64,000 nucleotides of DNA, from positions 29,142 to 93,141 of the forward strand of contig JBEKVV010000007.1 in assembly GCA_049513715.1 (NCBI GenBank), given 5' to 3'. Shown in pieces: positions 30,001 to 33,000 of this stretch (positions within the stretch are counted from its first letter, which is position 1; each line of letters starts with the position of its first letter). Position numbers: made by a program. This stretch comes from Candidatus Bathyarchaeia archaeon (GTDB lineage: Archaea > Thermoproteota > Bathyarchaeia > 40CM-2-53-6).

Positions 30001-33000
30001 TGGAAGGGATTGGGTTCGATATAGATGAGCCAATGGATCTCCTCCAACTTATGGGGCGCGAAAGGGGTCGGAATACAGGACGGTTCTTGCAGAGCTTGCT
30101 TGGCTGGATTTGATTCACATTGAAGCGCACTTGCTTGCTCTACGCCCGTCTAGGTCACTCGGTTCATTTTCAACCTCAACTAGCTAGTTCATGGTTCCTT
30201 GGGCTTGTTAATCTCAGTGCGTGTAATCGGGGCAAAGAAATTAAGAGATAATGCGTTTCTGATTGGGTTGGGTGTCTGAATTAGCCTCACCAAAGGAGTC
30301 CCACGATAAGGTGCTGCAGCTCCTGGAACAGCACCATAAGTGGTTCTCCGAATCAATCCCGTTGATAGCATCGGAGAACGTTCCCAGCCCCGCGGTTCGC
30401 GAAGCCATCGTTTCAGACTTCGGGAACCGGTACGCGGAAAAGGCCTAGGCACAAACGCCTAAGCCTCCGTATGGATGGGTCGGGGAGCGCGTCTACGCGG
30501 GCTGCGTATACATAGACCAAGTTGAGCAACTCTGCATAGACTTGGCGAAGCAACTTTTCCGCGCCGAATTTGTTGACGTCAGGCCAGTTTCAGGTGTCTG
30601 CTCGAACTTGGTCATTTACACGGTTTTCACAAACCCCGGTGACCGAATGCTCGCGTTGGCCATACCTAACGGCGGCCATATCTCCACAGGCCGTAAGGAC
30701 TTCTCCGGAACCGCAGGTGCAGTCCGCGGTTTAGATGTGGACTACTTTGTATTTGACCGGAAAGAGATGAACATCGATGTCGACAAGACGAAACAGAAGA
30801 TCCAGAAGATGGCTGTGGAGGAAAAGAAACCACCCAAGCTAGCTATGTTTGGTGGCAGCTTGTTCCTGTTTCCGCAACCTATCAGAGAATTGGTTGAGGC
30901 ATTGCACAGCGTTGGGGCAAGCGTCGCCTACGACGCAGCCCACGTTGCTGGGTTGATTGCTGGAGGCCATTTCCAAGACCCCCTAAGAGAAGGCGCGGAC
31001 GCCGTATCGTTGAGTACTCACAAGACGCTGTTCGGCCCCCAAGGAGGAGCGGTCATCTCATTCGAAAAATACGCTGAACAGATCAAGAAAGCAACGTTTC
31101 CATCAAACACAAGCAACCACCACCTTAACAACCTCGCTGGGAAAGCCGTTGCCTTCGCTGAAATGCTCGAATTCGGGAAACAATACGGAGAACAAGTCAT
31201 CACAAACGCCAAGGCGCTCGGCCAAGCATTGAACGATATAGGATTGACCGGTCTTGCGGAGCACAAGGGTTTCACGGAATCCCACCAGATCGCCGTCGAT
31301 GTGACGAAATATGGTTTGGGCGGAGACATGGAGCGAGCCCTTGAGAACGCAAACATAATCGTTAACCGACAACTGCTACCAGGTGACATCCAAGCCGGAA
31401 GGCACTACCAAAACCCCGGCGGCATTCGCATTGGAACCTCAGAGGTCACTCGCCTAGGAATGAAGAAAAGCGATATGGTCGAAGTGGCGCGGTTCATCAA
31501 ACGCGTCGTAGTAGACAAAGAGGAGCCAAAGAAGGTCAAACAGAGTGTTGCAGAGTTCAGGAAAAACTTCCAGAATGTTCACTACTGCTTCGAGAGCGCC
31601 AGGAACGCATACGAATACATCAAGATTAGCTGAGGCTTCCACAAGCACTCTGGAAATGAAAGTTTAATTGCCTCAGCAAAGGCCAAATAGATACAGTGAA
31701 CGCTGAACCTTGTCGAAACGTGAAAAAAGGCGTAAGCGGGAAGCGCCAATGCCCGCTGCGAGCGCAGGCTTACTCCGGTTCTTCGAGGAAGAGACGCCAG
31801 GGGTAAAAGTCCGCCCTGAAGTCGTCATTATGATGTCCATCGGCATCATCGCTGTAAGCCTCTTCATGTACTTGACGTTCAAGTAACCGTCTCTTTGAAA
31901 TCCAATAGTTTAGTTTGGGCGATCACTGGCAGAGGAGCCGCTCTGATTCCTAGCTTTCGTTCGATCTGGGACGCTAGGATGTCCGTGTACCCCGTGAAGA
32001 TGTAGACCTTCTTCGGGTTAACCTCCTTCACGAATTGCATCAGCTGATCGTAATCAGCGTGGCTGCTGAGAGGAAAAGAAGTGGATCTTCTGAACGCCTG
32101 CCGAAGCGCCCAACCGGTCGTGACTGCGCGCGAGGCGTTCTTCGGGGTATCGTCCCCTCTGCCGGTGGTGATGTAAACGCATCCGCCTTTCTTCATCATG
32201 CGTTTTCCTTCAGTCGTCGATGAATCATGGTAGTCCAACTTGACACCGTTCTCATCGTGGACTTGGTTGGCGCGGGTGATAGTTGGGCTGCAAAGAACGG
32301 GGATCTTGGTGTAAACGTTGAAGAGCCTCACTAGTTCTTGGGGTTTCCCGGATGAGTATACTTGGAATGTGGGGGTCTTTCCTTCCTCAATCTCTGTCAC
32401 AGACCACCTGACAATGTCCGCATACATGGTGCTCCTTCTTGGAAAGAGATAGGAAGGGTGCCCGTAGGTCGCTTCAACAACCAGGTAATCGCATGACTTG
32501 TGCTCAGCAGCCTGTGTTGTAAGGGTGTCTACGCAGTTAATGTCGCCAGTATAGATCGCTGTGAAGTTCGGGGCGACGACTTCATACTGACATGACCCGA
32601 GCATGTGTCCCGCGTTCAAAACTTTCACTTCGGTTTGATCGAACCGGAGCGTTTCCCCTACTTTGACAGGCTGAGTGTTCTTGACGGTCTTCTCTTTCAG
32701 TGATTCGTAGATTCTCAGTGTTTCCTGAGTTGAGTACTTCTTTGCTGATGTGGCGAAGCCATAGGTGTGGTCGGAGTGAGCGTGAGTGACGAAGGCATGC
32801 CAATCGCCACGCAAGGGCCTGCCCGAAGTCGGATCAAAGATTAGGCGAGGGCCTCCAGTATCAAACACTACTCCGTCAGCCCATCCAACTCTCTCTTGGC
32901 GCAACGACAGGCCTTCTCTCGAAGATGTCCTAGGACCACTTGGTCATTGCTGTATGGTTCTGTGGTCTACCACATATTGCCCGTATTTTGTCTTGAGTAG

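Follow-up and report, generated by a model that had tools for sequence, protein, structure and literature searches.

The serine hydroxymethyltransferase (SHMT) gene glyA of a Bathyarchaeia genome is interrupted by a 33-nt insert, which is very probably a real spliced intron with a relaxed bulge-helix-bulge (BHB) motif of the HBh' form, and glyA is a new host gene for an intron kind that is already known. A spliced pre-mRNA intron had been proposed in a first-pass annotation of this DNA, and at the sequence level the proposal is supported by geometry, covariation, non-translatability, exon selection and enzyme genes. Under the cleavage rule published for cbf5, the geometry of the motif predicts both cuts exactly where protein conservation requires them, and in 43 variants of the insert this motif is maintained by compensatory substitutions, with free variation in the inner hairpin. 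Furthermore, all of these inserts block translation and the exons are under purifying selection, and the genome encodes EndA and RtcB together with a textbook cbf5 intron of the same geometry.

Gene structure and gene product

Within the window, which denotes the whole 64,000-nt stretch of DNA that was analyzed, the glyA junction reads ...TAC GCG GAA, followed by aaggcctaggcacaaacgcctaagcctccgtat as the insert and GGA TGG GTC... as its continuation. In-frame reading across the insert gives NRYAE-KA-stop-AQTPKPPY-GWVGERVYAGC, so that both sequence and translation agree with the first-pass annotation, in which an insert of 33 nt containing an in-frame TAG had been placed between NRYAE and GWVGERVYAGC; the TAG is located at 30446-30448 (Table 1). 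The two pieces had also been taken for a single SHMT, and the Pfam SHMT profile (PF00464) bears this out: profile positions 4-50 fall on exon 1 and positions 51-399 on exon 2, which indicates that the two pieces are contiguous. At the end of exon 1 the tblastn matches stop at residue 59 in all relatives, and residue 1 of exon 2 is aligned with residue 58 of 1dfo_A. Exon 2 alone reaches 375 bits against the NCBIfam SHMT model NF000586 (cut-off 335), and its best solved relatives are 4uqv, the SHMT of M. jannaschii, and 4bhd (E 1.3e-119). With a score above the cut-off and contiguous profile coverage after removal of the insert, the gene is assigned to the SHMT family.

The spliced product starting with the TTG at 30263 comprises 445 aa, and the 446 aa given previously are obtained as codons when the stop is counted. 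The description of glyA as the only SHMT gene has to be corrected as well, as the genome encodes a further, divergent member of the SHMT family on the minus strand at C1:353436-354482, which has 399 aa and 41% identity and includes the PLP-lysine region. This paralogue scores 319 bits against the cut-off of 335, and glyA is the only gene in the genome above it. The host is an uncultured soil and sediment archaeon, and the estimated contamination of its genome bin is 8.79%.

Table 1. Features of the interrupted glyA gene and of the putative BHB-type motif (positions in the window)
Feature	Position	Strand	Description
glyA exon 1	30263..30439	+	59 codons, TTG start, C-terminal ...NRYAE; ORF list and translation
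BHB-type (HBh') intron of glyA, very probable	30440..30472	+	33 nt; boundaries set independently by protein alignment and bulge geometry
glyA exon 2	30473..31633	+	386 codons plus stop, begins GWVGERVYAGC; Pfam and NCBIfam
Central helix H, exon strand GCGG	30434..30437	+	paired to 30467-30470
5' bulge AAA, 3 nt	30438..30440	+	predicted cut between 30439 and 30440
Inner helix h', 5' strand AGGC	30441..30444	+	paired to 30463-30466
Inner hairpin UAGGC, loop ACAAAC, GCCUA	30446..30461	+	contains the in-frame TAG 30446-30448; folds
Inner helix h', 3' strand GCCU	30463..30466	+	paired to 30441-30444
Central helix H, intron strand CCGU	30467..30470	+	paired to 30434-30437
3' "bulge" AUG, 3 nt	30471..30473	+	predicted cut between 30472 and 30473; no outer helix closing

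Bulge-helix-bulge geometry of the insert

The proposed helices are present in the minimum free energy (MFE) fold of the insert with its flanks, in which a 4-bp central helix is flanked by 3-nt bulges on opposite strands. Thus, the GCGG/CCGU helix, the 3-nt bulges and the inner helix of the BHB motif described previously were all recovered, but the outer part of the motif is reduced. We looked for an exon-exon outer helix h and found only 1-2 bp in 20/20 genomic loci, while helix h' comprises 3-13 bp across the same loci; the motif does not have the strict hBHBh' architecture and fits only the relaxed HBh' form. This nomenclature reportedly goes back to Marck and Grosjean in 2003. As the outer helix is missing, the predicted cleavage at the 3' site would require the EndA of this genome to have the relaxed specificity that is reported for heteromeric enzymes.

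For cbf5, PMC2738675 gives cleavage between bulge nucleotides 2 and 3 as the rule. Applied to glyA, this rule removes exactly the 33 nt from 30440 to 30472, and the predicted cuts join PF00464 positions 50 and 51, which corresponds to an exact functional exon junction. Rfam returned no family within window positions 30200-30700 at E values up to 1. In a blastn-short search against its own genome the intron retrieved only the self-match, and without a second genomic copy it is not a repeated element here.

Distribution of the insert among relatives

We searched 105 genomes of the order and could read the glyA junction in 55 of them. An insert at the same bond between GAA and GGN is found in 20 of these 55 genomes, namely in 13/16 readable junctions of the same genus, 1/7 of genus g5, 3/3 of g10 and 3/3 of g6. 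Inserts of 31, 32 and 32 nt in three genomes of one family (f6) and of 25 nt in three genomes of another (f2) had already been reported at this bond and are real, but the insert is far more widespread than this, as the 13/16 genomes of the same genus demonstrate. For a census of variants, 80 metagenome loci were added to the loci of the order genomes; in total, 43 different inserts and 125 different junctions without an intron were obtained. All 43 distinct inserts are located at one bond and are 25-34 nt long. Intronless relatives have GAA and GGN with no gap, and the YAEGW stretch is present in all 125 intronless junctions except one variant.

These lengths bear on the question whether the ribosome could pass the TAG, by readthrough or by recoding to, e.g., pyrrolysine, so that the protein would have 11 extra residues. 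The insert of this genome, with its 33 nt and a single in-frame TAG, would be compatible with such a scenario, but we give it next to no probability, as it is already contradicted by the relatives, whose inserts are not translatable in frame. The frame is shifted by 24/43 homologous inserts with lengths that are not a multiple of three, the remaining 19/19 contain in-frame stops, several variants have two or three stops each, and translation would be blocked by 43/43 distinct inserts if they were retained. In addition, the extra residues would separate the residues aligned to E57 and G58 of E. coli SHMT inside YAEGW. An assembly or sequencing artefact might be suspected in a metagenome-type bin with an estimated contamination of 8.79%. 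The chance of this is negligible, as the feature is carried by 20 genome assemblies and 33 metagenome contigs, whose sequences differ and some of which are contigs of more than 1 Mb.

The inserts fall into three types, UAGRC...GYCU-CCGY (g1/g5), AAAGY...GCUU-CCGY (g10) and AGGGUCC...GGRCCC-CGGU (g6), which have nothing in common except the exon-pairing strand. On the tree the carriers form four clades with many intronless lineages between them, which corresponds to at least four changes, and under a single origin the insert would have to have been lost precisely about a dozen times. The intronless alleles L013 and L186/L217 fall inside clades of carriers, and what they lack is precisely the intron as predicted. 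A contiguous protein of 429 aa with 85% identity (P0002) was considered as the product of a spliced cDNA and rejected in favor of a genomic intron-loss lineage; it shares 94% identity with a pair of intronless alleles found on long contigs from metagenomes, and the junction codons of these alleles have drifted to GCT GAG. No cDNA-like contig was recognized.

Covariation between exon and intron

Helix H is formed with 4/4 pairs in 40 of the 43 variants and with 3/4 pairs in the remaining three, its third pair varies between GC, CG, AU and GU types, and a G-A mismatch in H occurs in 3/43 variants. The 5' bulge is AAU in 36 variants and AAA in seven. Taking the eight pairs of the H and h' core together, 98.0% of the cells are paired in the 43 variants, compared with 33-49% in registers in which the partner strand is shifted by 1-3 nt. 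The alignment of the 20 genomes gave a similar picture with 90.2% paired cells versus 31-47% after sliding; double-sided changes were found in 11/14 pairs and the covariation score was reached by 0/500 shuffles. Covariants of h' are AGGC/GCCU, AGAC/GUCU, AGAA/UUCU, AAGC/GCUU and GGGU/GCCC, and the inner hairpin varies freely in sequence and length among relatives.

Compensation extends across the exon-intron boundary: where a synonymous substitution has turned the exon codon GCG into GCA or GCC, the intron carries the compensating change (GCG/CCGY, GCA/CUGC and GCC/CGGU, plus a G.U intermediate). Intron-bearing loci retain GCG (or the compensated GCA/GCC) and GAA in 20/20 cases. At intronless junctions (n = 99) the Ala codon is GCT in 46, GCC in 20, GCG in 16 and GCA in 16 cases, and the Glu codon is GAA in 63 and GAG in 36.

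Phage T4 gene 60 and the mitochondrial "byp" elements are precedents for programmed translational bypass, and by analogy the ribosome could leave at GAA, skip the stop-containing hairpin and land at GGA. A stop directly or almost directly after the take-off codon, with TAG as first intron codon in most variants, and a gap filled by a stable hairpin would be in line with this mechanism. Nevertheless, we consider bypass extremely unlikely in glyA. It requires matching take-off and landing codons, but neither GAA nor GAG is the last intron triplet in any variant, this triplet being TAT, TAG, CAG, TTT, CAT, CAC, TTG, CAA, TAA or TTC. Furthermore, the conserved pairing between the exon and the 3' end of the intron, the exact 3-nt bulges and the 4-bp helix are what EndA needs and have no role in bypass, and a classical cbf5 intron in the same genome also argues for splicing rather than bypass.

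Selection on the exons

Purifying selection on exon 2 of intron-bearing glyA genes is strong, with dN values of 0.01-0.15, saturated dS and an omega of at most 0.05 in those 8 of the 36 exon 2 pairs for which dS is finite. These values are relevant for the possibility that glyA is broken or split, either as a pseudogene covered by the SHMT-like paralogue or as two separate polypeptides. The frame is indeed interrupted in every carrier, public gene callers give truncated products of 363-392 aa, and the paralogue with its PLP-lysine region means that losing glyA function would not necessarily be lethal. However, the low omega together with the saturated dS makes a broken or split gene improbable, and there is no other frame disruption in the fully read carriers except in the assemblies G046, G050 and G042, in which glyA is split further downstream. 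In addition, GWVGERVYAGCVYIDQ... right after the insert is conserved, although the first in-frame start lies 23 codons downstream. Moreover, a decaying insert would not preserve the motif via compensatory changes in 43 variants.

Predicted splicing enzymes and other introns of the genome

Two EndA paralogues (PF01974 genes) of 186 aa and 192 aa are encoded in the genome, in the regions of C1:841621-841866 and C4:134780-135019. The 186-aa protein is closest to the EndA chains of A. pernix, S. tokodaii and P. aerophilum, the 192-aa protein is divergent, and the best match of one of the two paralogues is the Aeropyrum pernix catalytic subunit 3p1z_B (E 2.5e-41). Judged by these genes, EndA is of the crenarchaeal two-subunit type, which is reported to accept relaxed motifs, and the RtcB ligase is encoded as well (C2:140350-141660, 578 bits).

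As a positive control, we used cbf5 of the same genome, in which a 19-nt insert splits the catalytic Asp codon between G and AT; it has H with 4/4 pairs, an h' of 4 bp and a register identical to glyA. tRNA introns are abundant in the genome (28/33 ARAGORN calls). A genome-wide scan for coding introns (H with 4/4 pairs, h' of at least 4 bp, length of 17-150 nt and a single hairpin, flanked on each side by 40 or more open codons whose usage resembles that of coding sequence) produced 105 + 54 candidates. We hand-picked 40 of them by hairpin energy or flank strength and scanned their halves against Pfam, and only cbf5 among these 40 displayed a split-family signature as in glyA. The other tested candidates were rejected as adjacent genes (Rpb5-Rpb2, AllG-AllH, SecY-kinase and a pair of T2SSF genes with TGA..ATG) or had no Pfam match, and in the DAO candidate the ORF is intact.

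Discussion

Based on these data we propose that in the glyA pre-mRNA the terminal GCGG of exon 1 would pair with CCGU of the intron to form the 4-bp central helix, and the intron ends AGGC/GCCU would form helix h' together with the inner hairpin, which would place the splice sites in 3-nt bulges on opposite strands. The two-subunit crenarchaeal-type EndA could then cut after nucleotide 2 of each bulge and RtcB could join ...GCG GAA to GGA UGG..., by which the YAEGW motif and the 445-aa SHMT would be restored and the 33-nt intron released, probably in circular form. We infer that cleavage, ligation and circularization take place in vivo. An unspliced mRNA would be translated only up to the TAG after 61 codons, and SHMT synthesis would therefore depend on splicing.

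The cbf5 pre-mRNA intron of Crenarchaeota was reportedly described by Watanabe in 2002 and Yoshinari in 2006. According to PMC7714728 (2020), cbf5 is the only archaeal mRNA example reported besides a BHB in the 5'-UTR of Haloferax HVO_1309. As described by Yokobori 2009 (PMC2738675), crenarchaeal cbf5 introns mostly have an "unconventional" (relaxed) BHB motif, they are linked to a hetero-oligomeric EndA, and among relatives they have been gained and lost in a patchy pattern. Measured against these accounts, the glyA intron resembles the crenarchaeal cbf5 intron as a short insert in a protein gene with a relaxed BHB and a predicted cut between bulge nucleotides 2 and 3, and likewise in the hetero-oligomeric EndA and the patchy presence among relatives. 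In contrast, its host gene codes for a central metabolic enzyme instead of one that modifies RNA, it occurs in Bathyarchaeia, its position is between codons (phase 0) and not inside a catalytic codon, and the synonymous positions of the exon bases in the central helix co-vary with the intron. Non-canonical tRNA introns with a relaxed BHB are cut by (alpha-beta)2 or epsilon2 EndA, as stated in PMC12397907 and PMC5829648. The glyA intron is similar to such HBh' or bulge-helix-loop introns in motif architecture, size range and presumed enzymes, but its substrate is an mRNA and the exon side of the helix is constrained by its protein-coding function.

As the insert types share only the exon-pairing strand and the four clades are separated by many intronless lineages, the insert may have entered glyA in several independent events, each at the same phosphodiester bond, although we regard this as rather unlikely. 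If it were true, it would imply a site-directed entry of endonuclease-type introns into protein genes, possibly by a route in which an excised intron is reverse-spliced into a BHB-like mRNA site and the product then undergoes reverse transcription and recombination, and archaeal mRNA introns would be mobile elements and not relics.

In the literature searched, including PMC7714728, endonuclease-type introns in archaeal protein-coding sequence are documented for the single gene cbf5. With a second host gene, splicing of mRNA by the enzymes of tRNA splicing would no longer be an oddity of cbf5 and would extend to central metabolism and to Bathyarchaeia. The latter are an abundant lineage of sediment and peat. 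Public gene callers report the SHMT of carriers as truncated or with out-of-frame N-termini, and therefore glyA may be misjudged as absent or defective in pathway reconstructions for these organisms. Furthermore, a second host gene would imply that base pairing with an intron can restrict the synonymous sites of an exon, and the 43 variants found in nature, with the compensatory changes that they contain, would represent a mutational series on what heteromeric EndA needs in a non-tRNA substrate.

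A predicted intron within glyA

The reading frame of glyA, which encodes serine hydroxymethyltransferase (SHMT), is broken by a 33-nt insert on the plus strand, where the junction reads ...GGG AAC CGG TAC GCG GAA / aaggcctaggcacaaacgcctaagcctccgtat / GGA TGG GTC GGG GAG CGC... and translates in frame as NRYAE-KA*AQTPKPPY-GWVGERVYAGC. This sequence and its translation confirm the first-pass annotation with regard to the site between NRYAE and GWVGERVYAGC and the in-frame TAG, and the spliced product is 445 aa instead of the 446 aa given there. Exon 2 alone reaches 375 bits on the NCBIfam SHMT model, above the cut-off of 335, and its closest solved structure is the Methanocaldococcus SHMT (4uqv/4bhd, E 1.3e-119). 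As the first residue of exon 2 aligns with residue 58 of the E. coli enzyme (1dfo_A), the insert lies between the equivalents of E57 and G58, within the invariant YAEGW stretch; the Glu aligned to E57 presumably has a catalytic role. The neighbors of glyA are cofC, the Sec61-beta gene and a gene for a metallo-beta-lactamase-fold exonuclease, which resembles ligase-associated DNA-damage exonucleases at a score below the cut-off of that model.

Features of the glyA region and of related loci (window positions, unless a contig, C, or a locus, L, is named)
Feature	Position	Strand	Description
cofC	29448-30113	+	2-phospho-L-lactate guanylyltransferase, F420 synthesis; upstream of glyA
glyA exon 1	30263-30439	+	59 codons from TTG; Pfam SHMT profile positions 4-50
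Helix H (central, exon/intron)	30434-37 / 30467-70	+	GCGG/CCGU
3-nt bulges, opposite strands	30438-40; 30471-73	+	AAA; AUG
glyA insert	30440-30472	+
TAG in insert	30446-30448	+	in frame
Helix h' (inner, intron)	30441-44 / 30463-66	+	AGGC/GCCU
Inner hairpin of insert		+	UAGGC/GCCUA
glyA exon 2	30473-31633	+	Pfam SHMT profile positions 51-399
Sec61-beta gene	31710-31886	+	downstream of glyA
Exonuclease gene	31879-32904	-	metallo-beta-lactamase fold
31-nt candidate	about 44221-44251 (C7:73362-73392; L165)	-	probably between two adjacent genes
cbf5 insert	C1:415527-415545 (L125 about 1480-1498; L185 269-287)		19 nt
SHMT paralogue	C1:353436-354482 (L002 1408-2607)	-	399 aa

Geometry of the motif

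H, h' and the inner hairpin are all present in the unconstrained MFE fold; as a whole, the 81-nt stretch around the insert is no more stable than shuffled versions of it (z = -0.86). Of the bulge-helix-bulge (BHB)-like motif proposed earlier, the 4-bp H, the 3-nt bulges, the 4-bp h' and the hairpin were recovered, and what is missing is the exon-exon outer helix of the canonical hBHBh' form, for which just 1-2 bp were found in 20 of 20 genomic loci. Because of this missing helix the motif belongs to the relaxed form, for which we take HBh' to be the fitting label. If the position of both cuts is derived from the bulges, it coincides exactly with the boundaries demanded by the protein alignment: for the cbf5 intron, PMC2738675 lets the cut fall between bulge residues two and three, and this rule applied to glyA gives cuts at 30439/30440 and 30472/30473.

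Conservation of the pairing between exon and insert

In total, we collected 43 inserts that differ from one another, along with 125 distinct junctions lacking the intron. The claim that the inserts of the relatives cannot be translated holds for the whole set, as 24 of the 43 lengths are not a multiple of three and shift the frame, and the remaining 19 all contain in-frame stops. With the test of H anchored solely on the protein-defined boundaries, all four pairs are kept in 40 of 43 inserts and one G-A mismatch occurs in the other three. The eight core pairs are formed in 98.0% of the cells over the 43 inserts, compared to 33-49% with the 3' partner slid by 1-3 nt. When the 20 carriers from genomes, i.e., loci with an insert at this GAA/GGN bond, were aligned with MAFFT, 90.2% of the cells were paired versus 31-47% in the slid control, and 11 of 14 pairs had changes on both sides; the covariation score of this alignment was reached by none of 500 shuffles, a control which is inflated by the relatedness of the carriers, whereas the slid control is unaffected.

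The exon Ala codon covaries with the intron (GCA with CUGC, GCC with CGGU), and one metagenome variant carries a G.U intermediate of this pairing. All 20 carrier loci have GAA together with an Ala codon that is GCG or compensated, whereas 99 intronless junctions use all four Ala and both Glu codons, a contrast confounded by phylogeny. Exon 2 of the carriers shows dN of 0.01-0.15 at saturated dS, and omega is <=0.05 in 8 of 36 pairs, those with finite dS. The inner hairpin changes fast, with 34, 32 and 30 nt within one tight clade of near-identical SHMT proteins and constant H and h'. These length changes around a fixed motif core are found in loci L010, L009, L011, L202 and relatives. Judged from these sequence data, the glyA insert is very probably a real and obligatorily spliced intron of the HBh' type.

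Distribution and probable losses

The order-wide search covered 105 genomes, and the junction was read in 55 of them. The insert is present in 13 of 16 genomes of the source genus (30-34 nt), in one of seven of genus g5 (34 nt) and in none of 26 from other genera of the order; the same-site inserts previously noted in two further families were verified at the junctions of all three genomes of g10 in family f6 (31, 32 and 32 nt) and all three of g6 in family f2 (25 nt). At class level, 401 genomes were sampled and 177 gave a match; among the matches listed, which were all but 31, every full-length one from outside the order is open over at least 438 aa, so that none of these is interrupted at the glyA site. 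The best 80 genome-contig loci added only intronless junctions outside the carrier clades, and the best 80 metagenome loci contained 33 further carriers.

A protein tree built from exon 2 of 50 members of the order splits the carriers into four groups and requires at least four changes. Once the metagenome loci are included, intronless alleles branch within the carrier clade of the genus (support 96-97), which argues for at least two precise intron losses in this clade. Two such nested loci, L186 and L217, have already drifted to GCT GAG as junction codons. The three insert types may go back to one old intron or to separate insertions at a single site.

Splicing machinery and the cbf5 intron

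The source genome comprises 11 contigs (2.79 Mb) at 99.4% completeness and 8.79% estimated contamination, and encodes RtcB (578 bits) and two EndA paralogues. The 186-aa EndA has its nearest matches in the catalytic chains of heterotetrameric EndA from Aeropyrum, Sulfolobus and Pyrobaculum (3p1z_B, E 2.5e-41); on visual inspection of the aligned active-site region, its Tyr, His and Lys are retained. The other EndA, of 192 aa, is divergent and does not show this His on inspection, which would fit a structural subunit. In intron mode, ARAGORN called just 33 tRNA genes and placed an intron in 28; some of these calls are unreliable, with kilobase "introns". This result suggests that standard finders miss many tRNA genes of multi-intron or non-canonical type.

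As an internal control, cbf5 of this genome contains its classical BHB intron of 19 nt, which splits the catalytic Asp codon (G/AT) and shows H (CCCU/GGGG) and a 4-bp h' in the same register as glyA. One half matches Pfam DKCLD and the other TruB_N from profile position 17, and the insert position is that described for the crenarchaeal cbf5 intron in PMC2738675. A strict and incomplete genome scan for this motif with a coding-like open frame on either side yielded 105 plus 54 candidates; among 40 hand-picked ones, whose halves were matched against Pfam, cbf5 alone had the signature of a split family. One 31-nt candidate lies between frames of 150 and 75 codons, probably two adjacent genes, with a weak hairpin (-2.6 kcal/mol) and no Pfam match in either half.

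A second SHMT-family gene and public annotation

Contrary to what had been stated, the genome has more than one SHMT-family gene, since contig C1 encodes a divergent paralogue that is 41% identical to glyA. Against the NCBIfam SHMT model the paralogue reaches 319 bits, short of the cut-off of 335. It has NRYTSHEG in place of NRYAEGW, lacks the YAEG motif, adjoins a gene resembling aRF1 and is conserved in many relatives. In the public protein clusters P0001, P0003, P0005, P0015, P0019 and P0023, SHMT of the carrier clade is called either truncated (363-392 aa) or with an out-of-frame N-terminus that reads through the intron (...QSPY-GWVGER). Therefore, glyA of this clade is systematically mis-annotated in public data.

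BHB introns in archaeal mRNA

Outside subscription-only papers, the full-text literature on SHMT, splicing endonuclease, BHB, Bathyarchaeota and cbf5 yielded no report of a glyA intron. In the available parts of these sources, one paper names cbf5 as the single further BHB intron to have been reported from an archaeal mRNA, apart from one in a 5'-UTR of Haloferax (PMC7714728, 2020), a structural study cites just the cbf5 papers for pre-mRNA (PMC12397907, 2025) and a review does not mention archaeal mRNA introns (PMC13149111, 2026). An intron of this known kind thus gains a new host gene, glyA, and a new lineage, Bathyarchaeia.
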